The position numbers and the translations under genes were made by a program. Below, piece after piece: positions 1-27,769 of a DNA stretch of 64,000 bases (positions are counted from its first letter, which is position 1; each line of letters starts with the position of its first letter). The stretch is from Fimicolochytrium jonesii (lineage: Eukaryota): NCBI RefSeq assembly GCF_025526975.1, contig NW_026515682.1, positions 496,001 to 560,000 on the forward strand. The letters run 5' to 3'. The notes below the pieces were generated by a model. That model did no database searches. It worked only from the letters and a program-made list of their open reading frames with translations, and was not told the origin of the DNA.

Positions 1-2872
1 ATGCGTCTGGTCTGTGGCCATCGCCAAACACCACCAAACGCACAATCAAGAGAAAATACTTGGTGCTTAGGACATCCTGATTGTGCACTTTCATCCGTAG
101 TGGTCGTCTTCCAGGAATCCCAAATGGCGTCCAGTCTTGGTTGATACATTCGGGGTTGGGGCAAACCACCAATCCATGGACGTATTCCATTCTTCCCTTT
201 CTAGCTTGCCACGGCCGAGACAACAGCCGACGTCGGATGTTTTTCTTCACACGGCCGTGGCAGTCAGGGCACACGGACGACGTTCGATACTCATCCAGCA
301 AGTAGCATGGAATGCCGTTTCTCGCAAAGAGTGTGCGGAATCTGTTCCATGATGAGTTAGCATAATAGAATACATAGTAGATACCACCAATCTTGGTCAC
401 TCACCCCTTGGTCTTCGATGACTCCTGAAAGCGCATTGTTTTCCCGGCATCGCTCCAATCACCCAAGATGACCGAAAAATGCTTTCCATACCGGCGTCGC
501 ATGTTCTTAATGACCTTGCTCTCAGACTTTTGCCGCAGTGAGAACGCCTTGAATCTGCGAGCTACGTGAATCTCATCCTGGTAAAACTCATCCAGGGCGG
601 GATCTGGGATATTGATGGATGTCAGCCCATGTATTACCAAATTTGAAAATCAAAGTTGAAGTTGAACATCATACCCGCATGTTCGTAACCCACAATGAAC
701 GCTGAGAACGCCTTGATGTTCATGCTCTTGTGCGATGGAATATGTGATTCCATCTCAGCGATGCCGGCATTGATCTTTTGCTCTCTCATGTCTCTTTGAA
801 AGTACTGAGACTTTGTCTCGACCGCCCGTTGATTGGATGCGTATCTGGTATGGGGTGGTGCATTGTGAGAACGCTGCAACGGAATGTCGCCGCAACGGGG
901 ATGGTGGGGATAGGGGCGGTGGGAGCTGCAGCAAGAGACGGGGGGATGGTGGGCGGAGACGGGGGGCTGGCGGGCGGAGACTGGGGGCTGGCGGGCAGAG
1001 ACGGGGGGCTGGCGGGCGGAGACGGGGGGGGGGGGGGGGAGGTAGCGGGGACAGCAGTGCAGTAGTAATCAACTGAAACGTACCGAAATGGCCGCTCCTT
1101 CTTGATGTCTTGACAGAACAAGAGGTCACGCTTGCCCGGATCAATGCTGACGATGTTTGGAGCCTCCCTTAGTTCGGCGATGTGGTGCTCAAAATACAGC
1201 TGTTAGACTTCTTCCTGCATTTGGGCTTTGCTGCGCTTCCGGGCGCGATGGCCGTACTTGAGCCCTGGCTTCTTGAAGTGGATGGTAGCGGAATACCCGT
1301 TTGTGCTGATTGACCCATCAAATTTGAGACCAAGCTTCTTTCGATGCTTGCAGACCTTGTCCTAAAATCCGTCATTCAGCAAGGTAATCAGATTGAATCA
1401 AGCACAGAAGGGTACAGACTTAACTTACATTCACATTGAGAAACTGCCCCCGCATCTCCTGCTTGCGTTCATCGGTGAATTTCCCCATGCGATGGTGGCC
1501 CAAGGCCAGGATATGAGTGGTTAGGATCTTTGTGTCGATCCGAACAGATGACTGGATTCGAGATTTGCGCAGCGGGATAGCGAAAAACAGCCGCATTCCA
1601 AGGCGCTCATAGAGGCGTGAGAGCTCACAATAGGCACCTGTGATGATGCAGGTGCGGACTATGATTAGACAAAAGAGGAAGCAGCGGGGGGGGGGGGGGG
1701 GGCGTAAATATACAGGATGTAACTCACCTAAATATGGCATTACGTCCACCGCAAGGCTGTACGCAAGCGCTTCATCCTGGGGAGGAAACAGAGCCCATAA
1801 CTTGTCGAGGACGGTCCGCTCAAGTCGTGTGAGGTGCGCAAACTCTTCTTGGGTTGGAAACTCTTCAAACGTCGCAAATTTTGTAAAGTGACGGACCCGC
1901 TGATAATAGTGTTGCCGCTGCGCTCGGTTGACTCCAGCTCTAAGGGGATGCAGTGCGACTTGCTTCAAACCAAGCCTTTCGTTGACGTAGCGCAGAAACA
2001 TTTGCATGAAATGCTCTTATACGTTAACTTTGAGGTTTGTGAGGATGCTCGTAGCCGTGTACGCTGCGGTCTGTTGTCAATACCGCATGCGGATGGGGGC
2101 GAATCCGTGAACATCACAGTAGTCTTGAACCCATGGATGCAACTCTCGCGCGATCACCGGATTGCCGTTGTAGCCTGGATTGTTGAGCAGCTCAAACATC
2201 ACACTGATGTGCTTGTCAGTGATGTCCGGGAAATCACGTAGAGGATGATCAGCAGCGGTGGGCAGACGTGGTAGTCAGGACATTGTTATGGGAAATATTA
2301 TGGGAAATATACAGTGTACCTCAAAAACTCACCAAGGTAGTGCTTGAGAAAGAAGGTCGTGTGGCGCGCAGGGACTGAACATTGCCGATGAATGTTGTCA
2401 GGCGCTCCCTTTGAGCTTGATTCTGATTATGGATGACTTGGTGAAGGGAAACCTTGGTGCCGGCATGTGTTTGCGGGCGGGGTCGTTGAACTGGTGGTGG
2501 TGGCGGGGGTTCAAGCACCAGGGATCCACCCGGTGTGCTGGGAAAACGGAAAGGGATGGGCGCGGGGAGGTTCGGTGGGCGCTGCAGACCCCCGTCCACG
2601 GGTGAAAGCCCTCGCTGCTGCTGGTGCTGTTGCCCGTCTTCATCGCCGGAGCTCTCGCTAACCATGTCTGGAATTGCTTGGGGCAAGTGACGCTGGACAG
2701 AAGGTGGGAAATCGAATCACGGGGGTTGCATTGGTGTCTGCACAGCGGTTGGCGGATTTATGGGCAGCCGCGGGATAACCGGAGCAACCTTCCTCCTCTT
2801 CCGCCGTGGTGTGGTTGCTCTCGTAAAGAAGCCACCCCACCGGTGCCCCTGGAGCGCCTTGTGTGATGACAT
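1..2872 (-). pseudogene. Fanzor1 (TnpB-like RNA-guided RuvC nuclease) copy A, 7 exons, degenerate; 3' end runs just off the window start
   Basis: Spliced translation gives PRRKRRKV NLS, LFFAIPLRKSRIQSSVRIDT, FDGSISTNGYSATIHF, RuvC-I IVSIDPGKRDLL, FRYASNQRAVETK, VILGDWS, RuvC-II LLDEYRTSSVCPDC and RuvC-III HNQDVLSTK. Lesions: CGA>TGA at 2717-2719, 1-bp deletion near 2375, TAA at 1203-1205. Confidence 0.9.
941..1038. repeat. ~21-bp GC-rich tandem repeat in Fanzor intron 4
   Basis: About four GGGGGCTGGCGGGCGGAGAC-like units. The same repeat occurs in copy B at about 26876-26947 as the reverse complement. Confidence 0.85.
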
Positions 2873-3153
2873 GATGGCCGTGCTGTGCCGTGCTGTGCAG
2901 GCAGGTGGTGAGAGCAAGGGGCCTGCTCTCGAGGAGGATCCAGGACTCTCGCTTATTTGCGAAGCGCTGAAGGCTTTCAGAGACTGGCTGGGGGTTTGCC
3001 TTGAATGTGCGAGGGTGGAAGTGTGCGCAATTGCGCGCAATTGTAAGAATGAGCTCGGTCTCGGCGGTCTGTAATTTGTCTGCTCACGACCATGTAGAAG
3101 GTAGAAGTCTGCAGACGCGGAGCCCCAGGGCACGGTGAGCGACACCCGCGCCC

Positions 3154-3311
3154 GCGCTAACGTGGCTTCACAGGCGTTAGCACCCACCCTGCGCTAACGT
3201 GGCTTCACAGGCGTTAGCACCCACCCCGCGCTAACGTGGCTTCACAGGCGTTCGCACCCACCCTGCGCTAACGTGGCTTCACAGGCGTTAGCACCCACCC
3301 CGCGCTAACGT
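3154..3311. repeat. 37-bp tandem array of hairpin-forming units (4 copies plus a partial)
   Basis: GCGCTAACGTGGCTTCACAGGCGTTAGCACCCACCCY starts at 3154, 3191, 3228 and 3265, with a partial at 3302. Each unit has an internal inverted repeat GCTAACG...CGTTAGC. Confidence 0.95.
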
Positions 3312-3614
3312 CACAAGTCCAGCGCTAACGTGTGTGCGTGTCATTACGGCGCCCGCAGGATGGAGACACGCTGGGCGAGGTCTGGACGGGCAGCTCAGGC
3401 CTCCAGCCGCCGGAGCTTCACCGCGAGGTCCGGTCCATCACGTTCGCCCGCGCTACTGGAGCAAGCCCCTAGCCACATCGGACTCTTGTGCGCCAAACTC
3501 GCCTATTGATGAGGCCTTTCTGCACAGGCAAGGTCTACAAAATCTACGCAGGCGGGGCAGGCAAGGTCTACAAAATCTACGCACGAGGGCCGGCTGCTGC
3601 TGGGGGCGGCGCAG

Positions 3615-4195
3615 CTATTCGTCTTCATCTGGGAGGCCGTATTTCCGGATGGCCGCGGCCGTCGCCAGGGGCAGCGTCACAACAGCCGTGTGGCAACTGC
3701 CGCCGGACGTGTCAAGCACCGCCGTTCCGTGGAGCTTGTCAGACATCCACGTCCACATGCAGTCGGGCTGCAGCACCAAGCAGAAGCCTTGCTCTGGCAG
3801 CGCAAATATCCACTCGCCGACGACGGTTTCGGAGCGGCGGCGTAGCCTGCCACCCATTGCGTGCATAGCTTGCGGGCCTGAAGCTCCTCCGGAAGCTCCT
3901 CCTTGGGGGTCAGCTTCCATATGGCGCGGCCTGTGTGCGGGTTCAGCTCGCTGGCTACGCCGTCGTCCAACCGGTCGGAGTGAACGACCACTTGATAGTT
4001 GGTCGTCGCGAACAGCGGGGCAAACTCATCGGAGTGTGGCCCGTACACCTTTGGCATGGACATCATCAGGTAGGCCGCCGCGGTGGGGTTGCGTTTGGTG
4101 AGCTCCTGCAGCAGTCGCTTGGTGAACGCCTTTTCCGTGGCGACGAGAAACTTTGCCAAAATGTCAGCCCCTCCTTTGATTGAATAGTGCCACGT
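3615..4195 (-). pseudogene. Tet/JBP-like 2OG-Fe(II) dioxygenase, C-terminal catalytic half (frameshifted, cut off by the Gypsy insertion)
   Basis: FATTNYQVVVHSDRLD (HxD at 3974-3982), then after a frameshift GEWIFALPEQGFCLVLQPDCMWTWMSDKLHGT (distal His about 3730). The frame continues across the ACGT target-site duplication into the 13056-13229 reading frame. Confidence 0.65.
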
Positions 4196-5267
4196 TGTGG
4201 TGGTGGCCGGCAGAAGCGTGTCAAATACGGGGTTACGGTCGGGTGTCGGGAAAAATAAGCTGCTGGTCTCTCAATAGCACAAGAAGAGATCTCAAGCGAG
4301 AGCGTTGTCTTGCCACCTTAATATCCAGGTGCTTTGAAAGGAGTCCTTCTTCTAATACGGGGTCAGGAATTACGGGCACGGGCACGAAATACGGAATCGG
4401 AATATCTGCGGGTTTGACTACAAAACAAAACAACGGGGTTATCCAGTCTCACTCTCAGCTCTTCTTACGAGATTCCTGAACTATCAAGTCCTCGGCGACG
4501 TCAGCAAAGTACAAGTCACGACACTCGGGGTCGTCTTGTCTAAGCTTTCCGGGTCTATGAGCGCGCCTTGAAGATCTATCAGAAACTGTAAGAAGTCGTC
4601 GGGAGTAAAGAAGTAGAAAGCTCTGTTGTTGATCGGGATCTGTGTTCTGCGTATCGTACAAAGGTCTGGGGAAAACGCGCGGGTTTTTATCTGGATTTTT
4701 CTAGGCTACGGGATTTTGTCGAAGTCCAAACTCTCTACTAGTCTTCTCTAGAGGATTTAGCTACGTCGGGGTCTTTTTCTCTTTTCCTGCGGCGGTCTAC
4801 GTAGTTTTTCCTTTTTCCATTTGCAATTTTGGCGCTGATACAGCCTTATCGCTAATCTTTTCTCGGGGTTTTCTGCAACGTTCGGCGTATATGGCCACCG
4901 GAAATTGGTTTTCTCGTTTCGAGGTGATTTCTTCAGCGTTTCGGGCATTGTGGGAGCTTCTGGTTGGTTAAGAGGCGGGTCGAGGGTGCTTTCATGTGTG
5001 CCATCCTCTCCTACGCCTACATTTTTGCATGTCAGTCGTATCCGAGGACAAAACATCGTCGAGAAGCAAGGTTTCGGTAAAGATAGTTGTATTTGGTAAT
5101 CATCGGAGTGTCGGGAACGCGAGTGTGTCGATTTATTGTCGGAAGTTTTGACGATATTTTGACGTTGTCATATAAAGGTGATTTCATTCGCTCGTCGAAG
5201 ATTCTAGGCGTATAATCAGCGTCAAAATTTTATCGATTTCATGCGCAGTTTGAAGCGCAATACTACT
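4196..5267 (-). repeat. 3' LTR
   Basis: Direct repeat of 11976-13051, roughly 35 differences by manual count. A purine tract (CAAAAGGAAAGA-like on the minus strand, about 5268-5281) lies just inside it. Confidence 0.95.
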
Positions 5268-5298
5268 TCTTTCCTTTTGTCAAATATTGATGTCCTCA

Positions 5299-8200
5299 TC
5301 AATTCTCGTCCGTAATTTTGTCTTCTTCGTCTGTTTCTTCTTCGTCTTCGGCGTTGCCATCGACTATCGGTTGTGTCTGGGTTCGAGTTCGAAATATCTT
5401 CAATCGGTCTCCGGCTACAGGTTTGCGTATCGTTGTCTGGTCTAATTCTTCGATATAATACGTGCCGTTGTTGTTGGGTTTGGTAATTCTGTAGGGTCCA
5501 AACCATTTGTTGTCAGTCTTGCCGGTTTGTTGAGTCAATAGCTTCGTGTTGTGCAGGAGAACTATGTCGCCGGGTTCAAAAGGTCGGTTTCTAATTCGGT
5601 GTCGTTTCTCCCAATACTTCTTGTTTGCTCTTTGGCTTGCGATTAGTCGCTCTGTCGCTAGCTTCAGGTCTTTGTCTCTGTATTGGAATGTTCAATGCGG
5701 TGTTGTAAAAATGTCTCGGTTGTCATGGGTTGTTGAAGATTTGGTACTGTCATCCATGTTTCATACGTAAGTTCGATAGGTAGTACGGCGTCTCTTCCAT
5801 AAATCAGGTAGAAGGGTGTAAACTTTGTCGTTCTTTTCGCAGTAACTCGATCTGCCCATAATGCAGCAGGGAATACGGTTGGCCATTCTCTCGGAGCCGG
5901 TGCGGTTCGAATAAGACGTTCGATAATCGGGGCATGTCCTCTTTCTACTAATCCATTCGCTTGCGGGTGATATGCAGTCGTAATTCGGTGTTTGACACCG
6001 TATCGCTCGGTAAGATGTTGTATCATTTTGTTGACGTTTTCGGGTCCACCATCGGATACTAGGTTTTTGATTGGTCCGTGTCAACAGAATACTTCTTCGT
6101 ATAAGAACGCGGCAATCTTGTCTGCAGTCAGCTTGCCTCTGATCATTCGTCCTTCAGGGTAACCGGTTGCGTCGTCTCGTAAAATCATTCCTCCTTCAAT
6201 TGCGTTCGTTCCTTTTGTGATAAATACAAAGTCTAGTCCACATTTCTGAAAGGGTCGTGTCGTTCGAATTTCGATGTAAAGCGGTTCAAATTCACGTCGC
6301 AGGTCTCTGAATTGGCAGTTGTGGCAGGATTGAACGTAGGCCTTTACTTCTTTGTACAGTCTTGACCAATAGTAGCGTTGTTGTATCTTTCGGAATGTCG
6401 CAAGGATGCCTCGATGTCCTCCTCCTTCCTTGCTTTTGTGCATGAATTGAATAATTTCTTCTTGGTCTTGTTCATTCCCGATAATTTGCAGGGGTGGTTT
6501 CAATCTCCGTTTCGTAAGAATGAATGATTGTCTTGTAGGGCGTATCGGGTACATCGGTTTCGGAATTTTCTTCGCTGGCTAGGGTACTTGTATCGCATTG
6601 GTACGGTCATATCGGTCAGGTATTGACGAATTTCATTCAAATCACTTTTCCATTCGGTTGTGGCTGAATTGACTCGTAATACATGCATTTCCGAATTGTC
6701 GGAGTCTTCGTTTTCAGTGTCGGTGTCATTGTCTGCTCGAGGTTTTCTCGAAAGTCCGTCCGCAGGGTTCTTCTCTCCTTTGATATGTTTGCTTTCAAAG
6801 TCGAATAGCATTAACTGCGCTACCCATCGCATTATGGTGCTGTCGGGGAATTCGGGTTTTTGTAGTAGTTGAATCAAGGGTTTGGCGTCAATCCAGAGCT
6901 TGAAACGTCTGCCCCAAACGTAAGTTCGTAGTTTGCGAACTCCTTTGTAGGCTCCAAGTAATTCAAGTTTGACTATCGGGTCGGTATTTCGTTGCTGTTC
7001 GGTAAACAATCCACTTTCGAATCGTATCGGTCTTTCTCTTCCTTCGGAATCAACTTGGGAGAGTATCGCTCCCCACGAAATGGGTGTAGCGTTGGTCGTA
7101 ATAATGAACGGGGGTGCGTCTTCTTCGTAGTTCGGCGCAGCTAATACCTTGGCAGCGACGAATTCTTGTTTTAACGTATCCATACAGGTCGGTTGCTTGG
7201 TCGTCCATTCGAATCGGGCGTTTTTCCTGTACAACTTGTACAGGGCGTCAGCTTTCTTAGCAAAGTCTTTGATCCAGGCGCGGTAGAATAGAATAAGTCC
7301 GAGGAATGCTTGTACTTTGGTCAGGTTCTGGCAAGGGGGCCAGCTGGTGATTTTTCGGATCTTCAATTGTTCGGGTGCCCTTCCGTCGTAACTGCAGACT
7401 ATGCCTGCGAAACTTGCTTTCGACATTCCCCAGCTTGATTTCTCGCCGGAAAACGTGAGTCCTGAATCGATCATAAGAATAAATACTTTCTTGCAGTCGT
7501 CCATGTGGTCTTGTACGAATTTGCGAATGTTAGGTTTCACGTGTGTCTCATCTCAGTATTTCGGTCCTTTGATGCCCGTATCATTGACATATACGCTGAC
7601 GATGTCGGGTTTGAGGGATTCGAAAACTTTGTTGACTACTCGATGAAATTGAGCTACTGAATTGATTCCTCCTTGAGGGAGTCGGGTAAGTTGGTATAAT
7701 CCAAACGGCGTAAGCATGGCTGTAAGGTCTCTTGATTCGGGGTGTAGGGGTACTTGATCATATCCGGAATACATGTCTGCCATAGACAAAATCGAACGTT
7801 CAGCAAATTCTTGAGCGAAAACTTCTGCGATCGGCGCACATCCGGCATCTCGTATTGTCACGCTGTTGAGCATTTGTACATCTTGTACGAATCGATAAGT
7901 TCCGTTCTTCTTGGGAACGAAGACCCAGGGGTTGCGGTAGGGTCCAAATGAAGGTTCCAACAGTCCTGCGTCTCGTTTCGTTCGGAGTAGGTCTGTCGCG
8001 ATCTTTGTCATCTGCGGGGGTAATCGGTGTGGTTTAACCATCCAGGGCGTATGCGGAATCGTATGAATCTTGACAGGTTCTTCAATGTGTGGCTTCAATG
8101 TTCCTCTTTTGCGGTCGTTGAAAGCAAAAGCCATGTCGTATTTGCGCAATAGTCATAAGAACGCAGCTCGTTCTTCGGTAGTCAAATCTTCTCCGAAAGT

Positions 8201-9969
8201 ACGCAAGTATTCTTGCCCATTGAATCGGTTTTGTCGTACGGTACTTCTGGCGGGTGTCTCGGTAATCGTAGGTCTGGGTAAAGCTTCAGGTCGAATGCCT
8301 CCGGGCAAGGGTTGTGCTAGGGGCTTGATCTTCTTTGCAATGGGCTTGAATTTTGTTTGTACTTGCACGGAGTATAATTCTTCTTCAGAATCGGAGTCGG
8401 AGTGGTATTCGGAATAGGTTCGTCGTCGACTGGGCTGATACAGTTCCTCATAATCGATGCTGTAATCACTGTCGGAATCTGAAACAAGACTTTCTTCTGT
8501 GTCGGATTCTTCGGATAGCATTGGCATATCGTCCATGATTGACTGCTGTCGGTAGGTAAACGCTTGTACATGGTACTCGATTGATTGTTCGTAAGCTTCT
8601 TCAACGTCGTGTTCTGAATCCTGTTTGTTGTCGGTCGTAATCGTGTCGGTAGGTTCTTCAGTGACGTTTCCTTTTGTCGAATCATATTCTTCGCTGTCCG
8701 TTTCGGTCTCATAGTACTGGATCATGTACGATCGCATTTGTAGGGGTCGTCGGAGTTTGTGTCTGTAAAGCATGTCGATATCTTCGAGGTATTCGGGATG
8801 AACCCATCGTTTTATGTCTTCAGGTACGTGTCCAGAGGTTAAATCCCATACTTGGCTGGTGCGGCGAGGAATTGGGCGCTTTTGGCAGAGTCTGGGTCAA
8901 ATATACGACACCATACACTTCCATCATCGCAATTCTTCTCTTCTAATCGGGTAATGCGGCGGTAAGGTCTTCCCAGAATCAAATCGTGACTGAGGGACTC
9001 AGAACTGACAAAACAGGCGGTCGAGCAACTGATGGATGCAATAGAAATCTTAATGTCGTAAACGACACCATTAATTCGACTGGGTCTCCCCCCCATATTC
9101 TTAAATGTAATGTTTGCAGGAATGGTCGTTTCGATCGGAATGTTTAGTGCTTCGAATAAACGTAGCGACATTAGATTCACTTCGGCTCCGGAATCTAATA
9201 GTGCAACGATCAAGTTCGAGTACTGGTTGATTTTAACGATCGCGTGCAGGCTGATTCCACTTAGAGTCGGGGTCTTATAATGTTCCGTTGCGATTTGTCG
9301 AAACATCATCACTTCTCCTTCATCCATCTCTTCAGACTGAATGTTGTACACGTTTTTGAGGTACTGCTGAGGGCGTGCTGAATGTTGAATGGCGTTCACG
9401 TTGAACGACATTTGGGCAACTCGTTCGTCACGGGCTTTCTTCTGCTTTTCTCGATCACTTTGTTTCTTGATTCTTTCTTCATACTGGTCGATTGGTACAC
9501 GGTGTTGTTGTAGATCGGATGCAACGGATTTTCGAAATTCGGGACTGAGAGTCATCAGTTCCGGGAAGGTGATGCCAATATTGACATTCTTGTAAAGTCT
9601 GCATTTGATCGCGTCAACGGGATGATTGCCTTGGTCTGCAATGTCGGGATAAAACTTGAACTTCGGCTGTCTTCGCTTGGGTCGTTCTTCATCCGTATCG
9701 GTCTCAGTATCAGTTTCCATCGGCGTAACAGGTCGATCGTCAGTTGGCCGGTCTCCAATCGGACGGCATTTCTTTTTCTCTCCTGGTTTCAGGATATCTC
9801 TTCCAGCGAATTTCTCGGTTGGCTCGGGTGGGTAATTTTCTCTTTCGGACGGTGTCATCTGCATCTTCCGTATCGGTTCCAGCTCTGGCGGGTGCTTGTC
9901 CACTTTGGGGTCGGTTTCCGTCAGCTGGATCAGCAACAGCAGGTCGCTTCGGATCGCGGGCTTGGGCAA
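5299..9969 (-). pseudogene. Gypsy pol: aspartic protease, reverse transcriptase, RNase H, integrase (fragmented)
   Basis: ALLDSGAEVNLM (protease); DMYSGYDQVPL, RLPQG and YVND (RT, mutated YVDD); RNase H ...HIKGEKNPADGLSR; integrase H-x-GHRG...CHNC, TAYHPQANGLVER and WFGPY. Confidence 0.93.
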
Positions 9970-10318
9970 TAGTCGTATCGAAATGAATGGGATCGTCCCA
10001 GTTCGTAATGTTCCAAATCGTATAGGTCAAGTCTTCTGCATGTTCTTCAAGATAATCTCGGATTTCGGATGAGCGTTCGGAGGTTTCACGGGTCTTTTTC
10101 TTGCCGTCATTTCGCAGCATAAACGAATTGATTGAATGACTGTAGGATCTTTGATTGGCGGAAGTGTTGCGATTGCGAAGTACGGCGGCTTTGGCATCTT
10201 CGAAAACTTTCTTAATCCCTCCTCGTCCGATGTTCAAAGGGATTTCTTGTCCGGGTACTCCAATGGTCGTATTGTGAGGGTACGCAATTCGTCCTTGTCC
10301 GTTAAGAACTAGTTCTTC

Positions 10319-11588
10319 TCAGTTCTGAACCTCAGAAAAGTCTCTGCAAAATCTGCGCTGGTGTCCTTCTTGATCACAATAAACACATCGCAAGGGTCGA
10401 ACATTCGCATTGCCGGTACTCGTTGAGCTACTGCCTTGCGAATCGTTCGCAGGCGGAAGTCGGGTCGCAGGAGTCAAGCTCTGCAGGATTCGGTTCTGGC
10501 TAGTCTGCAACTGGGCCATTCGTTCGGTCATTTTGCGTACTGCTCGGTCAAGTTTACTCTCGGTCTGCAATACTTGTCCTTGTACGAAGTTCAGCTGGTC
10601 ACTAACGGTCGGGTTGGTAATACCGGGGATCGTAAGAATCGGTTTCTGAACTGTCATAGATCGCGCGTCGGAATCGGGTTGCTTGATAACTGTCGTAAGT
10701 TGAGAAAGCGCAGCAACTAGTTGCTTCGGTGATGGCTTCCATAACTCGGCTAACGGAGGGTAACTGAGTTGGTCGCAAGTGGGTTCCACGTTCAGCAGCG
10801 AGTCTTCTGGCTTGTTGGAGAACTCGTTTGTCGAAGCCGGGTTCGTCTTTCCACGGGATCAGAAGCAAATTGATCTTTTCTTTGTCAGCGACCCCATCGA
10901 TTCTTGCATATCCATAGGCCATTTCGTTGATAAATTCTGCAACGTTGGCAGTGTTCCGTTTGACATGGTCTCGTTGACTGAGAGCCCATTGTTCGAGGTT
11001 GTTGAAAGTATGGCGAGTTTGAAAGGAATCAAAGTTCAATATCACCTCTTCAGTAAACGTCACCCAAGTTGGTTCTTCTCTCCATCGAGTATATTTGGTT
11101 ATGTCAAGCGATTGGAAACTAGGCATACTACAAAGCAGCGGTCGAAGGCTTGGTTGCGAATACTGGATGAATGTCTGCATACATCGTTTGTGTTTCAATT
11201 CCACGATTTGTCGCTCCTCCTGATTAGCAATAGCAGGATCTCGCGGGTTGTACGGACTGCGAAGTGTGGTGTGCAGAGGGTTGAGGATGATGCTCGGGTA
11301 CTGGGCGTCAGGTTCATATCCAGCGTCGTTAAGTTGAGCATAGAATAGGTCGAGTTTCTCTTGTACATCTCGTCCATCGAACTCTATAGCTCCAGGTTGT
11401 CCTATCATAGGTAAACCTTTTGAACTAGCAACTCAAAGTAGCATAGCGAACTGGTTGGCAGTCACAGGAAACATCGGGTTGTTTGCCCCATAGTCAGGAG
11501 GCGGGTTAGGCGGATTGTTCAGGTTCGGGTTGGGATCTGGATTCGGGTCAGGATTCGAATTATCGGGCGGCGGATTAGCGTCTGCCAT
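10319..11588 (-). pseudogene. Gypsy gag with CCHC zinc knuckle (interrupted)
   Basis: ATG at 11588, Pro/Asn-rich N-terminus, early stop, FDGRDV motif and CVYCDQEGHQRRFC knuckle at about 10345-10390. Confidence 0.85.
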
Positions 11589-11950
11589 TTTGTCAAGAAA
11601 GTTGCTATTACTTGAAAAATGCGAAGATGTCTAAAATAGACGGTCGAAGATTGTCTCTAAAAAGGAGTCGGTTGTCGGAGTACGAAAGTGCTGACGTCAA
11701 AGAATGGCGCAGCAGAATGTACGTGTGAAAACGCGCTTTTGCATGTCGAAACAAGGGGTAGGCTGTCGAAAAGTCGGGCGGCGATGCGCTGTCGAGCTGT
11801 CAAAAAGCAGCTGTTTTTGGTAGATAGCGAGTCGAATAACTAGCGTATCGATTTTCGTCGGTTTTTGTTGTACGGTAGGTACAAAGTCTATACGGATAAG
11901 CAGGTTTAAAGGATGTCTGAGCGATAGAATCTCTTTTCGTCGAAGAAAAG

Positions 11951-11970
11951 GACTCCTGGTAGGATCGCCA
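11951..11970 (-). other. Primer-binding site, probably for tRNA-Arg(ACG)
   Basis: TGGCGATCCTACCAGGAGTC lies 5 nt inside the 5' LTR. Its complement GACTCCTGGTAGGATCGCCA resembles eukaryotic tRNA-Arg(ACG) 3' ends (from memory). Confidence 0.75.
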
Positions 11971-11975
11971 GTAAA

Positions 11976-13051
11976 TGTGGTGGTGGCCGGCAGAAGCGAG
12001 GGTCTGTCAAATACGGGGTTACGGTCGGGTGTCGGGAAAAATAAGCTGCTGGTCTCTCAATAGCACAAGAAGAGATCTCAAGCGAGAGCGTTGTCTTGCC
12101 ACCTTAATATCCAGGTGCTTTGAAAGGAGTCCTTCTTCTAATACGGGGTCAGGAATTACGGGCACGGGCACAAAATACGGAATCGGAATATCTGCGGGTT
12201 TGACTACAAAACAAAACAACGGGGTTATCCAGTCTCACTCTCAGCTCTTATTACGAGATTCCTGAACTATCAAGTCCTCGGCGACGTCAGCAAAGTACAA
12301 GTCACGACACTCGGGGTCGTCTTGTCCTCTCCGGGTCTATGAGCGCGCCTTGAAAGTCTATCAGAAACTGAAAGAAGTCGTCGGGAGTAGAGAAGTAGAA
12401 AGCTCTGTTGTTGATCGGGATCTGTGTTCTGCGTATCGTACAAAGGTCTGGGGAAAACAGGCGGGTTTTTATCTGGATTTTTCTAGGCTACGGGATTTTG
12501 TCGAAGTCCAAACTCTCTACTAGTCTTCTCTAGAGGATTTAGCTACGTTGGGGTCTTTTTCTCTTTTCCTGCGGCGGTCTACGTAGTTTTTCCTTTTTCC
12601 ATTTGCAATTTTGGCGCTGATACAGCCTTATTGCTAATCTTTTCTCGGGGTTTTCTGCAACGTTCGGCGTATACGGCCACCGGAAATTGGTTTTCTCGTT
12701 TTGCAGGTGATTTCTTCAGCGTTTCGGGCATCGTTGGAGCTTCTGGTTGGTTGAGAGTCGGGTCGGGGGTGCTTTCATGTGTGACATCCTCTCCTACGCC
12801 TACATTTTTCGCATGTCAGTCGTATCCGAGGACAAAACATCGTTGAGAAGCAAGGTTTTGCTAAAGATAGTTGTATTTGGTGATCGTCGGAGTGTCGGGA
12901 ACGCAAGTGTGTCAATTTATTGTCGGAAGTTTTGACGGTATTTTGACGTTGTTGTATAAAGGTGATTTCATTCGCTCGTCGAAGATTCTAGGCGTATAAT
13001 CAGCGTCGAAATATTATCGATTTCATGCGCAGTTTGAAGCGCAATACTACA
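11976..13051 (-). repeat. 5' LTR
   Basis: TGTAGTA...CACCACA termini on the minus strand; direct repeat of 4196-5267. Confidence 0.95.
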
Positions 13052-13743
13052 ACGTCCCCCTGGCATATCCCGAGTGCTTGACGCCACGACAAAGCCCGGC
13101 GGCGTGCATTGTGCCCCTTGAAGCCTTCCATCGAACCAGAGTGGGCCGGGATCCACAGGACTCGACGATGAGCCGCAGCCGCAGGTCATGTTCGCGACGA
13201 CCCGCGCTATTGTACGAGATTGTGGCCACAAGGGCGCCGTGCTCGTCGCGGATGTAGATGTCCGCCCCCCCCCCCCCCCCCCCCCCCCCCGGGGTTCAAT
13301 TCGCTCAAGCCCATCCAGGCCCCTCGCCTTCTCCGGCCTCTTCCTAAACCCCGCATAGACCATCTTGCCCTGCCAGCCATCGCACGAGGCGGGCGTTGGC
13401 ACCACGATGTGAACAGCCGGGCGGCTACCGAGGGCCGGGGGTCGACGGACAAGTTGGCCGCGGTAAGACCGCCATCGGTGATCGCAGCGATGATGTCGGA
13501 CTGGAGCCCAATGTGGTGCTTGGCGCGCTTCTTGTGGGGAAGGGACCGCATTGGCCTATTGGTCCACCAGCCCCAAAGGGTGGAATTGTCTTGCTTGATC
13601 TTCTTTGAAAAAAGGCCAATGGCCTTGCCCTTGTCTTCTAGGCTAGCGTCCCGGGCGGCAAGGCCGGAGCCTACCAGCAGCGGATACAAAAAGGCCACCG
13701 TGTCGCCGAAGATAGCTGTGGCGCGGCCCTCGCCCATGCCCAT
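13052..13743 (-). pseudogene. Tet/JBP-like dioxygenase, N-terminal half
   Basis: GKMVYAGFRK (13339-13370) resembles the G-x-M-x-x-G-W-R-K motif of fungal Tet-like oxygenases. The frame ...HSGYARGT joins WHYSIKGGADILAKFLV... across the retroelement. Frameshifts at about 13400 and in the C-run at 13265-13290. Confidence 0.55.
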
Positions 13744-13860
13744 CAGAAGAGCCTTGACCGTGGTGGGGGGCGACGGGGGCGTGGCCTGCAGCGCGGTGGA
13801 GGGGAAGGGGAGGGGGAAGGTGTTAGCGGCTCAGGCCGCGCGATCGCAATCACCGACGCG

Positions 13861-14096
13861 GCACAGCAGCATGCCCAGGCAGCGCATCCCATACCGGTCG
13901 ACCCCCCACAAGCGGCGGTCGTGCTCAAGATCAGCGCACAGCAGCATGCCCAGACAGCGCACCCCATGACGGTTGACCTCCCGCAAGCGGCGGTCGTGCT
14001 CAACATGGGCTGCGGGATCGGCGCATGGCAAACACGTCCAGACAGCGCACCCCATGCCGGTCAACCTCCCGCAAGCGGCGGTTGTGCTCAGCATGG
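13861..14096 (+). repeat. ~75-bp tandem repeat x3 (25-aa coding-like unit AQQHAQTAHPMxVDLPQAAVVL)
   Basis: GCACAGCAGCATGCCCAG...CAAGCGGCGGTCGTGCTCAA units at 13861, 13936 and about 14022. Confidence 0.85.
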
Positions 14097-14199
14097 ACTG
14101 CAAGCCCAGGCGGTCAACACCCGGCAGAGACGCCCACGGCTACACAGCAGCCACTCACCTCGTCAGCGCTGAGCATTCTCGGAGCGTGCTCTGTGTGAG

Positions 14200-15728
14200 T
14201 TGCCGGGCTTGAGCTGGAAGGAAGTAGGCGCCGGCCGGGGGGTACAAAGCCACAGGCGGCCCCGAGGCCTCAAAGCTGCTCGACGAAACCATGCACCTAT
14301 TCAGAAAGCTCGCGCTCAAAGGCCAATGGCGGGAAAGGGGGCAAGAAGGCGATCAGGCAAAACGTGGCAACTTTGGGGAAGGCAGCGGACCGCATATGAG
14401 AAGGCTACAGGGGCGTCGCAGACGACACTTACGCGCATGCAGGAAGCGGCAAAGCAGGTATGAGTGGGGTGAGTGGACGTTGCCGCAGTGCTGCGCTAAC
14501 GCGGGGTATCTGCGCAGGGGAGACGAGAGGCAAAACGACGGGCACCCAAACCCAAGCTGGCCGCACCGAAACTGGCCAAACGGGAGGAGTACTTGCTCGA
14601 CAACACCGAGGCGCGCGAGCACTGGCAGGTGGCGCCGCTGACGAGCATCGGATACTATGCAAAGGGTGTCCCAAAGTCATGGGCGGAGGTGGAGAGGGGG
14701 AAGGGCCTGCCGAAGCCTGCCTCAGTGGTGCCCTATGCGCGCGCCACCGGCCACGGCGAGATGCCCGGCTTCTGGACCAGCCGCCACAGGCTGTGATGGA
14801 CGAGTGCGCACGCCTGGCCCGGTATGGCGATGTCGGCCCCTTCACTCTGCCGCCGACCGTGCTTGGCCTCTACCCAAACCTGAAGGAGGCGGGGAGCGGG
14901 TGGATGGGCGCGCCTGACATGGCCAGCCGAGTGGGGAACATGGGCGGCAGGCCGAAGAGCGCAAGCAATTGGCTGTCGCTGACCACGATATACACGTACG
15001 TCGACACCCTGGCGAAGTCGGCGGCCGTGACCCGGAGGGAGACAGGGCAACCCCTACGACGCATGTGGACGGCGAGGCGCTGCTGATTGGGGAGGGGTGT
15101 TTGGCTCCCGCATACATTCACCCGGTAAGTGCCGTACATTCTCGGGGCACTGCCGCACATCCCGCGCTAACGAGCCCCCTCCACAGTAGCAGCAGAACAC
15201 GACGTCGCGCACTTCATCCTCCACAGAAACCGCAACTATTTCGCCTCGTACTGGTATGGCCGGACGGATGGCCGGCATTACTTTTACGACTCCATGTTTG
15301 GCAAGCGATCGGGGAAAATGAACGCGGCCGTATGGACCGAGGACATTCGCTGGCGCATCGTGGGCAGGGTGCGGTACATGATCCACTGTGGGTTTATGCC
15401 GGCAGGTGGGCCCACGTCCCCCCCCATCTATGTGTCGCACCCCCGCCAGCAGGACATGGACTCGTGCGGGGTTCTGTTGTGCTGCATGGCCAGCTGGATT
15501 ATTCACGGCACGGTGGGGGAGCGCAATGCAAAGGAGGCGCTTGTGCTCCCGGCCACGTATTCCACCAGTCAGGTCAACGTTGCGCGCTGGACGATCATGT
15601 GGACCATTCTGCACGGGAAAGCCTTGAACATCACGGCCGTGGGCAAGGATCGAGCGGTAAGACCGCGCGCCCCTGTTGTTGATGGATGGCAAATGCTAAC
15701 CCCCCCCCCCCCCCCCCGCCCCTGCTGA
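14200..15728 (+). pseudogene. Ulp1/C48 family SUMO-peptidase-like gene, multi-exon and degenerate
   Basis: NWLSLTTIYTYVDTL, HYFYDSM (Asp at 15288) and PRQQDMDSCGVL (Gln, Cys at 15465). The expected catalytic His position reads NYF (TAT at 15237, possibly CAT>TAT). GT-AG introns at 14458-14517 and about 15125-15186. Frameshifts present; start uncertain. Confidence 0.7.
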
Positions 15729-16173
15729 CAGGGCACGGAAGGCTGGGCAGCCCCTATGGGCGACGTGACCAGCTGGGTGGCCGGTGACGGAAACCACCGG
15801 CGGCCACAAGTGCAGCGACCTGCGCGGCAGAGGTGAAAACCGCAGAAGCCGTGGCAGGGAGCGCTGGCGGCAGGGAGCCGTCGGTCAAAGTGGTCGGCGG
15901 TGATGGTTGAGAGCTCGCCGTCCATCAAGGAAAGAAGAGGGAGAGGGATCCGTCGGCGGAGGCGGTGAGCGCGAAGAGGGTGTAGACGGGAAAGGGCGGC
16001 TGGGCAATAGCGTGACATATCCCACGCTATCGCGGCCACCATATTTAATACGGCACCGCTGAGTCACCCACGGATGCGCCACATTGATTTGTATGAAACG
16101 ATTAATGAAGCTATTCTGAAACGATAGCTTGCCGCCGCAAGATTTTTACTATGTAACAGATTTGCGAGGCGGT

Positions 16174-16306
16174 AAACGCTGTATTCTAAATTGAATCGAG
16201 ACCCTAACCCTAACCCTAACCCTAACCCTAACCCTACTTTGTAAACGTTGTATTCTCACTTGAATCAGGACTCTAACCATAACCCTAACCCTAAATTGAA
16301 TCAAGA
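16174..16306 (+). repeat. Interstitial telomeric (CCCTAA)n repeats within a duplicated ~69-bp unit
   Basis: (CCCTAA)5CCCTA at 16202-16236 and a degenerate tract at 16271-16294, each preceded by AAACGYTGTATTCT..TTGAATC. Confidence 0.9.
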
Positions 16307-23823: not shown

Positions 23824-24096
23824 CTCTACTCTTCCTCACTCTTCGCGCTCCTCACGCTCTTGATTGCACCTCGTCATGGCCCCCAATTACATACCAACCC
23901 TCCTTCCCACCCCCCTTCCTTCCCAACGCAATTGTGAGCAGTAAGCATTCCCGGTTTCACCTTCAACCACCACCAGGTAACAACCGCAATTCCTCACCGT
24001 TCTCAGCCTCATTACCACAGCACTGACGCGAGTTCTTTGACACACAGCCATCACGGCAATCACCTGCAACACCTGTCTCGGCACAGCACAGCCATC

Positions 24097-27000
24097 ATGT
24101 CATCACACCAGGCGCTCCAGGGGCACCTGTGGGGTGGCTTCTTTGCCGGAGTTACCACACCACGGCGGAAGAGGAGGAAGGTTGCTCCGGTTACCCCTCG
24201 GTTACGTCTGCCAACCGCTGTGCAGCCAACCTCTGTGCAGACACCATTGCAACCCCCACGATTCGAGCTCCCACCCTCTGTCCATCGCCACTTGCCCCAA
24301 GCAGTTGCAGACATGGTTGGCGAGAGTTCCGGCGATGAAGACGGGCAGCAGCAGCAGCAACAGCAGCGAGGGCTTTCACCCGCGGACAGGGGCCTGCAGC
24401 GTCCGTTGAACCTCCCTGCTCCCATCCCTTTCCTTTTTCCCAGCACCCCGGGTGGATCCCTGGTGCTTGAACCCCCGTCACCACCACCCGCTCAACGACC
24501 CCGGCAGACACATGCAGGCACCAAGGTTTCGCTTCACCGAATCCATAATCAAAATCAAGTTCAAAGGGAGCGCCTGACAACATTCATCGGCAACGTTCAC
24601 ATCCTTGCGCGCCACACCACCTTCTTTCTCAAGTACTACCTTGGTGAGGTTTTGAGGTACACTGTATATTTCCCATGATATTTCCCATAACAATGTCCTG
24701 ACTACTACGTCTGCCCACCGCAGCTGATCATCCTCTACGCGATTTCCCGGACATCACTGACAAGCACATCAGTGTGATGTTTGAGCTGCTCAACAATCCA
24801 GGCTACAACGGCAATCCGGTCATCGCGCAAGAGTTGCGTCCATGGGTTCAAGACTACTGTGATGTTCACGGATTCGCCCCCATACGCATGCGAAATTGCC
24901 AACAGACGGCAGCATACACGGCTCAGAGCATCCTCACAAACCTCAAAGTCAACGTACAAGAGCATTTCATGCAAATGCTTCTGCGCTACATCAACGAAAG
25001 GATTGGTTTGAAGCAAGTCGCACTGCATCTCCGGAGAGCCAGAGTCAACCGAGCGCAGCGGAGACAGTATTATCAGCGGGTCCGTCACTTTACAAAATTT
25101 GCGACGTTTGAAGAGTTTCCAACCGAAGAGGACTTTGCGCGCCTCACACGACTTGAACGGACTGTCCTTGACGAGTCATGGGCTCTGTTTCCTGCCCAGG
25201 ATGAGCCGCTTGCATACAGCCTTGCGGTGGACGCAATGCCATATTTAGGTGAGTTGCATCCTGTATATTCACCCCCCCCCCCCCCCCCCAGGCTCGTGCG
25301 TGGCTGTGCAGTGCCTCGCTTGGTATGCCAACCTGGCCGAGTGGCTGCCCGCCGGGACCCCGGCCGACGTGGTTTGCGATGCGCTGTTGGCGCTGGGCGC
25401 CCGCACGCTTGGCTCCCGCGGCCCCCCCACCCCCCCCCCCGGCCTCGACGACGCCGCCAGTGCGCGCACAGCGGGCCCGGGGCGCGACCGATGCTCTTGC
25501 CCACCGCCATGGCGTCAACGTAACCAGCGCCGCCGACGTGTTCGCCGCGCGCCGAACATAACGCGAAACCCCCCCCCCCCCCCCCTGCGGTGCCCTCTTT
25601 TGTCTAATCATGGTCTGCACCTGCCTCGCCTCATCACAGGTGCCCACTGTGAACTCTCGCGCCTCTATGAGCGCCGTGGAATGCGCCTGTTCTCCGCTAT
25701 CCCGCTGCGCAAATCTCGAATTCAGTCATCTGTTTGGATCGACACGCTGATCCTAGGCACTCATATCCTGGATGTTGGCCGACGTCGCATGGGGAAACTC
25801 ACTGATGAACGCAAGCAGGAGCTGTGGGGGCAGTTTCTCAATGTGAATGTAAGTCTGTATCCTTTGATGAAGAGGCGCGCGAAGGTCGGGTGGATGGCGA
25901 GACAGCCGGTGAGGATGCAGTCGATGTAGGATTGCGGGATCGGTGTGCACGGGGTCGGTGTGTGCGGGGCTGCCGGTCCCGTGCACGCGCTTGTGCGGGA
26001 CGACGGGGGCTGGAGCTCGTACACCCACACGACAACGGGCGCGGCGGGGGATGTGGTTGTGGTTTCAAACGGGTGTGAGATGGTGGGTGAAGATGGCGGG
26101 GTGTTGAAGTGGAGGATCTCGATGTCCTCCACTCTGACCGTTCCGCGGACGTAGTCCTTCTCGCGCTCGTTGGGTGGGTGTGCGGACGGTGCGGAGGCGC
26201 GAGTGCGGGTTGATGAGGGTGCGGCTCTTATTTCAATCACCTTGCTGAATGACGCATTATAGGACAAGGTCTTCAAACATCGAAAGAAGCTTGGTCTCAA
26301 GTTTGATGGGTCAATTAGCACCAACGGGTATTCCGTTACCATCCACTTCAAGAAGCCAGGGCTAAAGTATGGGCATCGGGCCCGGAAGCGCAGCAAGGCC
26401 CAAATGCGGGAAGAAGTCAAGCAGTTGTATTTTGAGCACCACATCGCCGAACTACGGGAGGCTCCAAACATTGTCTGCATTGAACCGGGCAAGCGTGACC
26501 TCCTGTTCTGTCGAGATATTGAGAAGGAGCGGCCATTTCGGTAAGTTTCAGTTGATTACTACTGCCCTGCTGTCCCCATCCCCCCCCCCCTTCCCCAACC
26601 CTCGACTTTGCGGAAGATGGTGCGGAGGTGTTTGCGGACGTTGACTTGGAAGGGGTGGTTCCCCTGTTTGCGTACACGGGCAACGAATCTGGGCGAGAAT
26701 CCTTGCGGATCTGGGCGAGGAGTTCGTTGATAGAGTTGGACGAGCACGGAGCTGTCGATGGGAACGCCGCCAATGACGGAGCAGCCGCGGTTGGTTTGCT
26801 TGTCGCCGTCGCGCGTCATATCGCTCGTCGCGTGGCCCATGTTGATGACCTGCATGACGGTGTCGAGGCCAACCCTGTCTCCGCCCCCAGCCCCCCGTCT
26901 CCGCCCCCCAGCCCCCCGTCTCCGCCCGCCAGCCCCCCGCCCGCCCGGAGAGACATGACAGAGCGGAAGATCAATGCCGGCGTTGCTGAGATGGAATCAC

Positions 27001-27769
27001 ATATTCCATCGCACAAGAGCATGAACATCGAGGCGTTCTCAGCGTTCCTTGTGGATTACAAACATGCGGGTATGATGTTCTACTTCAACTTTAATTTTCA
27101 ATATTTGGTAATACATGGGCTGACATCCATCCATATCCCAGATCCCGCCCTGGATGAATTTTACCGGGATGAGATTCACGTCGCTCGCAGGTTCAAGGCG
27201 TTCTCACTGCGGCAAAAGTCTGAGAGCAAGCTCATTAAGAATTTGCGACGCCGGTATGGAAAGCATTTTTCGGTCATCTTGGGTGATTGGAGCGATGCTG
27301 GGAAAACGATGCGCTTTCAGGAGTCATCAAAGACCAAGGGGTGAGTGACCATCATTGGTAGTACCTACGATGTATTATAATATGCTAACTCATCATGGAA
27401 ATCAGATTCCGCACACTCTTTGCAAGAAACAGCATTCCATGCTACTTGCTAGATGAGTATCGAACGTCGTCCGTGTGCCCAGACTGCCACGGCCGTGTGA
27501 AGAAAAACATCCAACAGCGGCTGTCATCTTGGCCGTGGCAAGCTAGAAAGGGAAGAATGGAATACGTCCATGGATTGGTGGGTTGCCCCAACCCCGAATG
27601 TATCAACCAAGACTGGACGCCATTTGGGATTCCTGGAAGACAACCACTACGACTACGAATGAAAGCGCACAATCGGGACGTCCTAAGCACCAAGAATTTC
27701 CTCTCGATTGTGCGTTCGGTGGTGTTTGGCGATGGCCGCAGACCAGACGCATTCTCCCGTAACCGGTAG
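24097..27769 (+). CDS. Fanzor1 copy B, 7 exons; no stops in exons, but RuvC-I D>E and the start of exon 5 is deleted
   Basis: Exons 24097-24643, 24724-25248, 25640-25848, 26263-26540, about 26933-27069, 27142-27340 and 27406-27769, with consistent phases. Motifs: ILTNLKVNVQEHF, IVCIEPGKRDLL, VILGDWS, LLDEYRTSSVCPDC, CPNPEC, HNRDVLSTKNF. Confidence 0.9.

Follow-up and report, generated by a model that had tools for sequence, protein, structure and literature searches.

A TET/JBP-like pseudogene split by a Gypsy element in Fimicolochytrium jonesii, and the probably mobile gene family it points to

What gene lies in two pieces on either side of a retrotransposon in a stretch of 64,000 nucleotides of the chytrid Fimicolochytrium jonesii (Spizellomycetales), and how did it come to be there? 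The stretch (contig NW_026515682.1, positions 496,001 to 560,000) is called the window here, and all coordinates are positions within it. A sequence-only reading of the window had attributed the two pieces to a minus-strand gene for a Tet-like 2-oxoglutarate (2OG)-Fe(II) dioxygenase, divided by a Gypsy insertion. The explanation that we favour, with moderate confidence as a whole, is that the window holds a dead, split copy of a dispersed multi-copy chytrid TET/JBP gene, whose intact copies would ride on a DNA transposon and whose intact enzymes would oxidise methylated cytosine, weakening host silencing.

The insertion and the state of the interrupted gene

The split itself is real. A Ty3/Gypsy element at 4196-13051 interrupts the minus-strand TET/JBP-like gene of the window, and it is bounded by two long terminal repeats (LTRs), also in minus-strand orientation: the 5' LTR at 11976-13051 and the 3' LTR at 4196-5267, with a minus-strand purine tract just inside the latter, from 5268. 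The LTRs are 96.0% identical over 1079 columns, with 32 substitutions in 1068 aligned columns, and a 4 bp target-site duplication, ACGT, is found on either side of the element (4192-4195 and 13052-13055). The internal region (5268-11975, minus strand) has broken frames, in which Pfam matches follow the order protease, reverse transcriptase, RNase H and integrase: an aspartyl protease (gag-asp_proteas, E 3.3e-4), reverse transcriptase (RVT_1, 1.4e-13), RNase H (RT_RNaseH, 1.1e-20) and the integrase zinc finger (Integrase_H2C2, 6.1e-18), with weaker matches to the integrase core (rve, 0.0021) and an SH3 domain (SH3_Tf2-1, 0.012). Since paired LTRs, a target duplication and this domain order are all present, the element is assigned to Ty3/Gypsy. 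When 4196-13055 is excised, the junction reads as a single frame, HSGYARGT-WHYS; uninterrupted paralogues carry YARGTSHYS where the window has YARGTWHYS, which independently confirms the empty site.

The Gypsy element is not the only lesion, because three further frameshifts remain, and the window copy is almost certainly dead. Set against its paralogues it falls into five frame blocks, all on the minus strand. The continuous frame that the sequence-only reading had described after removal of the element exists across the junction, from about 13265 to 3830, and does not extend over the whole gene. The N-terminal blocks (13292-13809) include a predicted helical domain and are shifted near 13426, where one base is short. 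They are followed by a frame-shifting poly-G run (poly-C on the plus strand) at 13266-13291, with 26 bases where paralogues have three codons, that is 17 bases longer, which could be a real expansion or an assembly error. The next block (13056-13265) carries the conserved arginine of VRW (13133-13131) and GTMHAAGLCRG (13115-13083). On the other side of the element, the middle block (3830-4195) lacks one codon near 4155 and holds HxD (3982-3974), an aspartate five residues after its histidine (His+5) and then an insert of about 35 residues. The third frameshift, one base short at 3828-3830, separates HxD from the distal histidine (3731-3729), so that these are now in different frames. The last block (3615-3827), which is 86-93% identical to paralogues and is also recognised by a profile of distant relatives, has TGC (Cys) at the site of the 2OG-binding arginine (3695-3693) and ends at a stop codon (3617-3615). 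The frameshifts near 13426 and at 3828-3830 lie outside homopolymers of the size of the poly-C run. The frameshifts and the loss of the arginine may have preceded the Gypsy insertion or followed it, either order being possible. Long poly-C/poly-G runs are frequent in the window (13266, 15700, 33213, 37030, 42007 and others), several of them in coding frames, and may reflect real slippage or assembly error.

The peptides quoted in the sequence-only reading all exist in the window, and its suggestion that the 2OG-binding arginine has decayed is borne out: arginine is kept at this site in 7 of 9 paralogues and in 14 of the 15 outside relatives that reach the column, so the loss belongs to this copy. 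The peptide GKMVYAGFRK (13369-13340), proposed there as a Tet-like motif, has to be given up in this role. All nine paralogues have glycine in place of its arginine, which makes it a private mutation of the window copy, and the motif of the GxMxxxGxR type is instead the GTMHAAGLxRG at 13115-13083, which is conserved out to distant relatives and aligns with GIMVGVGWRKG of one of them, P0020.

A dispersed family with a predicted TET-type fold

A 93-residue piece left of the insertion matched eight proteins among 100 candidates, all from F. jonesii, and this species has 12 paralogous gene models, on 12 contigs that differ in length. Compared with ten of them (P0006 and P0009 were left out), the window copy shows 76-89% identity. 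[quoted passage not shown]

A profile of eight paralogues, searched against 1.84 billion representative proteins, gave nine matches at E <= 0.001: three F. jonesii paralogues, two proteins of Powellomyces hirtus, one of Geranomyces michiganensis (N-terminal) and three further proteins. With this profile P0020 is matched at E 1.1e-6 and P0021 at 8.5e-4. One P. hirtus protein exists in three copies at 92-95% identity. A second relative in this species, P0018, is without the insert and without arginine at the aligned column. Both P0020 and P0021 match PF20515 (Tet-like 2OG-Fe(II) oxygenase), with E 0.011 and 0.00089, under the 27-bit cut-off, and 12 AT-rich metagenome loci related to P0021 yield full-length relatives, of which 5 of 5 tested match the same family weakly. 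These contigs (L001-L012, 18-28% GC) have open full-domain relatives without the insert, and we would guess that they come from arbuscular mycorrhizal fungi, the nearest atlas cluster being from Mucoromycota. Conversely, a profile built from only ten distant sequences gives 50-66 bits to those F. jonesii models in which the C-terminal block is kept and 43.5 bits to the frame that holds the last block of the window copy, against 3.0 for the highest-scoring of 903 controls made by shuffling or reversal. In the atlas, P0020 lies nearest to a Mucoromycota cluster (0.96), at a recognition value under the reliable range, and its next neighbours are clusters with PF20515 (15% of members) and Tet_JBP (16%); the atlas has no usable match for P0002. 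Phage records gave two chance matches only, none of the 71 pattern matches in metagenome contigs and five in viral contigs was confirmed as a close relative of P0002, and no relatives of P0020 were found in viral contigs.

The fold was predicted for P0002, one of the paralogues that keep all motifs. With a 26-row alignment the model reached a mean predicted local distance difference test score (pLDDT) of 72.8 and a predicted template modelling score of 0.64, and shows a helical domain (residues 25-121) and a core rich in beta strands, with an insert of low confidence (332-367). In a Foldseek search with this model, nine of the top ten rows are CcTet and one is TET2 (E 1.0e-7 to 8.1e-7), followed by CMD1 and NgTet1, while FTO and AlkB proteins stand lower, the first listed FTO row being at rank 20. 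When the 1000 best chains were realigned by structure, TET2, CMD1, NgTet1 and CcTet took all of the first 16 rows, with Z 13.9-18.9 over 222-267 residues. The best rows are those of TET2 (Z 18.9, root-mean-square deviation (rmsd) 3.8, 255 residues) and CMD1 (Z 18.0, rmsd 3.5, 267 residues), then NgTet1 (15.4) and CcTet (14.4), and the next row after the TET proteins is ABH3 at 12.4. The best named viral structural matches are likewise JBP1/TET domain proteins. On this model the intact copies very probably belong to the TET/JBP family and have its double-stranded beta-helix, and the family proposed by the sequence-only reading stands. A lack of such a fold, or unrelated best hits such as a MULE transposase, would have spoken against it; a TET fold is predicted and no MULE transposase was seen.

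Some points weigh against this placement. No window piece and no F. jonesii model matches any TET family in Pfam, a comparison that the sequence-only reading had proposed; PF20515 in particular finds no F. jonesii or P. hirtus protein, and the relatives that it does find score 13.9-19.8 bits against the cut-off of 27. Sequence searches of the PDB, made with window pieces, with P0020 and with four profiles, returned no TET match. The P0002 fold depends on the aligned distant sequences, the single-sequence model being useless (pLDDT 35.7), and it describes a paralogue, not the window copy; the paralogues called intact are automatic gene models, known as models rather than from their DNA. The absence of direct Pfam or PDB sequence matches would suit another 2OG-Fe(II) oxygenase, such as an AlkB-like one, or an unrelated protein with chance motifs, and AlkB proteins do match the fold, with Z up to 12.4. 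But all 16 best structural rows are from the TET family, with longer alignments (222-267 residues, compared with about 170-195 for AlkB proteins), relatives match PF20515, and clusters of PF20515 and Tet_JBP are among the neighbours that P0020 has in the atlas. Foldseek and the realignment have thus largely refuted this alternative already, and we regard it as extremely unlikely. By sequence the F. jonesii family appears related to PF20515 and the PU type, and it is not filed as a member.

Carrier and companion gene

At least 14 dispersed TET copies were found, on 14 contigs in total. In the window, the unit shared with other copies, which comprises the TET gene and a companion gene, spans at least 3389-15907. 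Upstream of the TET gene it has three repeats of about 75 bp (13861-14094) that are common to other copies, the paralogue gene models translating the same repeats. The P. hirtus models P0016, P0022 and P0023 also start with repeated peptides, whose sequences differ from those of F. jonesii. A 37 bp tandem array at 3143-3311, with a weak inverted look-alike near 16024-16035, may be a subterminal repeat of the cassette, and a 54 bp direct repeat pair with telomere-like CCCTAA units at 16172-16294 may mark its right subterminal region. The CCCTAA units, at 16202-16231 and 16283-16294, stand far away from any chromosome end that is visible. Close by, downstream of the TET gene, there are a perfect 16 bp palindrome (3028-3043) and a 26 bp direct duplication (3525-3583); a Helitron 3' end at the palindrome was considered and dropped, as no CTRR follows it.

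The companion gene (14237-15907, plus strand) is divergent from the TET gene and spliced, and its 5' part is missing in the window. It was identified by its matches to P0013, P0014 and P0015, the three proteins found among 11 candidates in a search of annotated proteins of at least 194 residues. P0013 is the window's own companion, exact runs covering 364 of 368 residues, the P0014 model crosses a TET copy on its antisense strand and then the companion gene, and P0015 has an accession adjacent to that of the TET model P0010 and a contig of equal length; all three companion loci found carry a TET gene. The C-terminal region may be Ulp1-like (C48), given residues in the His-Asp-Gln-Cys order of such proteases, and neither Pfam nor PDB gave a match for this putative protease region. 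At the histidine of this motif the window has tyrosine, where P0014 has histidine. The counterparts of residues 500-699 of P0014 and 1-555 of P0015 (at least 555 codons of the latter) are absent from the window, and because this 5' part is lost, the window copy would be a deletion derivative.

Intact copies likely travel as mobile cargo. A DNA transposon as their carrier is suggested by the dispersal of the copies, their decay and published precedent, the principle of TET-carrying transposons in fungi being known already (Kojima 2025, PMC12730594). Several observations weigh against such a carrier. The window cassette, a presumed deletion derivative, has no transposase or Rep/helicase gene, and no terminal inverted repeat or target duplication of the cassette stands above chance in the window, where four weak candidates for element ends compare with a chance mean of 0.53 and a maximum of 6. 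The companion is shown at only 3 of 14 TET loci. Elements of the hAT7 kind have GCTAAC-rich subterminal repeats as well (Kojima 2025, PMC12730594), but so short a motif is no test. A family of host genes that spread through segmental duplication or was captured passively, and is not regular transposon cargo, would explain why neither a transposase nor element ends were found and why the companion is present at so few loci. It fits less well with copies that lie on 14 different contigs and are mostly broken (all motifs are kept in 4 of the 12 models), with a cassette that lies between repeats and carries tandem arrays, and with a second species, P. hirtus, that has near-identical dispersed copies, and we consider it unlikely.

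Apart from the cassette, the window has three copies of a repeat, 86-93% identical, at 1-2890 (minus strand), about 24040-27750 (plus) and about 61850-64000 (plus). Its last frame gives a weak Cas12f1-like_TNB match (E 0.0065), and it is presumably a decayed element of the Fanzor/TnpB type. The left copy ends at about 2890, adjoining the TET cassette; that the cassette had inserted into this repeat was considered and rejected, since the remainder of the repeat is not at the right end. The region 16500-52000 holds ordinary host genes (NUDIX, APC2, IF3, SMC, FAD oxidoreductase, F-box/WD40, DEAD helicase and an amino-acid kinase with a PUA domain).

Chemistry, novelty and known systems

In the intact enzymes Fe(II) would be held by HxD and the distal histidine and 2OG by two arginines, and a flipped-out 5-methylcytosine (5mC) would be hydroxylated. 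By analogy with known enzymes, oxidation of 5mC with 2OG is the chemistry that we think somewhat probable, and 5mC is the best guess for the substrate. In TET2, NgTet1 and CMD1 an asparagine or aspartate at His+5 binds 5mC and clashes with N6-methyladenine (6mA), and CcTet accepts 6mA thanks to glycine at this position (PMC11040006). The chytrid copies have aspartate there, not the glycine or serine of the AG type and CcTet, which would favour 5mC over 6mA. There are also signs that the host methylates CpG in its repeats: transitions between the two LTRs affect 15 of 162 CpG sites and 8 of 344 other C/G sites (p = 0.001), and in the related Spizellomyces 5mC is confined to transposons (PMC12695648). 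A 6mA demethylase resembling CcTet would fit a genome with 1.84% 6mA (PMC11258239), and CcTet tops the Foldseek list. However, this idea is very unlikely to be correct, given the aspartate at His+5, where such a residue clashes with 6mA (PMC11040006), the lowest Z of CcTet among the four TET proteins, and the observation that 6mA in Spizellomyces marks expressed genes and not transposons (PMC12695648), so that a transposon would gain little by removing it.

A second alternative keeps the family and the carrier and changes the reaction, either to one in which a fragment of vitamin C is moved onto 5mC, as by CMD1, or to thymine oxidation. As a structural match CMD1 is level with the best (Z 18.0, rmsd 3.5, 267 aligned residues), it has the highest identity to the P0002 model (14-15%, compared with 8-11% for other TET proteins), and the chytrid family has a bulky residue (Tyr, His or Trp) four residues past the invariant Trp, on the strand after HxD. 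CMD1 retains the aligned arginine, displaced by Trp358 (PMC7854593), so the presence of this arginine is no proof of 2OG use; as CMD1 keeps it yet uses vitamin C, and is the closest in identity, another chemistry has to be given some weight. Still, the equivalence to Trp358 is one of residue count only, an identity of 15% is near noise, and arginine in 14 of 15 outside relatives is what 2OG binding would predict, which leaves this alternative with a small chance. That the family lacks the arginine, as had been considered with CMD1 in mind, is ruled out by its conservation. In P0020 the strand that comes after HxD carries Trp in place of the Tyr found in most relatives, which recalls Trp358 of CMD1 by residue count.

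Oxidation of 5mC with 2OG also has to be weighed against several observations that do not favour it. The aspartate at His+5 borders a segment with pLDDT below 50 and is equivalent by count, and distant relatives have arginine at this position. Where TET2, NgTet1 and CMD1 have a base-stacking aromatic residue (Tyr or Phe) at Arg+6 (PMC7854593), the chytrid family has threonine by residue count, so that the base pocket would differ; the PU-type sequences compared (Kojima 2025, PMC12730594) have no aromatic residue there either. Of the 49 positions at which the window copy departs from the majority of paralogues, only 13 are readable as CpG transitions, and the TET gene has a CpG observed/expected ratio of 0.86-1.0, which is little CpG loss. 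With its altered pocket and its closeness to CMD1, the enzyme might make some DNA modification that is not 5-hydroxymethylcytosine, an outcome that we think improbable.

Transposon-borne TET/JBP genes have been described from rusts, agarics and Pezizomycetes, on 11 lineages of transposons, where escape from silencing was proposed and the function was stated as not validated (Kojima 2025, PMC12730594), and in its available text a review from 2026 lists no groups for such genes other than Basidiomycota and Pezizomycetes (PMC13297926). New here are the phylum, a TET/JBP lineage that Pfam fails to see, and the companion gene. The words 'chytrid', 'Ulp1' and 'protease' are absent from the available text of Kojima 2025 (PMC12730594), the portions of PMC12344493 and PMC4738411 at hand have nothing on chytrid TET genes, and no report of a chytrid TET/JBP gene or of a TET and Ulp1 cassette was found in literature searches that, apart from the papers named here, covered listings; chytrid members may already be included in the main survey, that of Iyer et al. 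2014. The dead locus serves as a pointer to a TET/JBP lineage in Fimicolochytrium, Powellomyces and probably Geranomyces that is annotated only as 'uncharacterized' and has more distant, AT-rich relatives in soil, and it extends transposon-borne TET genes past the three fungal groups of the 2025 survey (PMC12730594), in a host genome that combines CpG decay in repeats with high 6mA. The apparently intact enzymes P0002, P0010, P0011 and P0016, with their unusual predicted pocket, could bear on what mobile TET enzymes do. As a more speculative proposal, which we hold to be rather unlikely, chytrids could have their own lineage of mobile two-enzyme anti-silencing cassettes, with a TET/JBP dioxygenase missed by Pfam head-to-head with a putative deSUMOylating protease. 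If true, one element would strip both a DNA methyl mark and a SUMO-type silencing mark.

Among the known systems, CcTet of Coprinopsis cinerea (AG type; PDB 7vpn, 7w5p and 8jkk) resembles the chytrid family in being fungal and transposon-associated and is the top Foldseek match (E 1.0e-7), but it has glycine and not aspartate at His+5, and a lower Z (13.9-14.4). Human TET2 (Z 18.4-18.9) and NgTet1 of Naegleria (Z 15.3-15.4) have HxD, the distal histidine and two arginines in the same order; they differ in their low identity (8-10%), in the Tyr or Phe at Arg+6 that is threonine here by count, and in that the chytrid gene is not a single-copy host gene. CMD1 of Chlamydomonas (PDB 7cy4-7cy8) aligns with Z 17.2-18.0 over 262-267 residues and shares the aspartate at His+5. 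It uses vitamin C (PMC7854593), the co-substrate here being perhaps 2OG, and its base-binding Phe416 and Arg418 are Thr and Pro/Thr/Ser at the counted positions of the chytrid family. The PU type (PF20515; PMC12730594) differs from the F. jonesii family, which lives in a chytrid host, scores under the PF20515 cut-off, has an insert of 35-65 residues after HxDxxD and a predicted N-terminal helical domain, and for which no transposase or element ends were identified here. In common with it, the F. jonesii family has the same motif order by eye (GxMxxxGxR, F..TxN, HxDxxD, G.F.FP, W...HxT, Arg) and a multi-copy, dispersed TET/JBP gene that lies beside another mobile-element gene.

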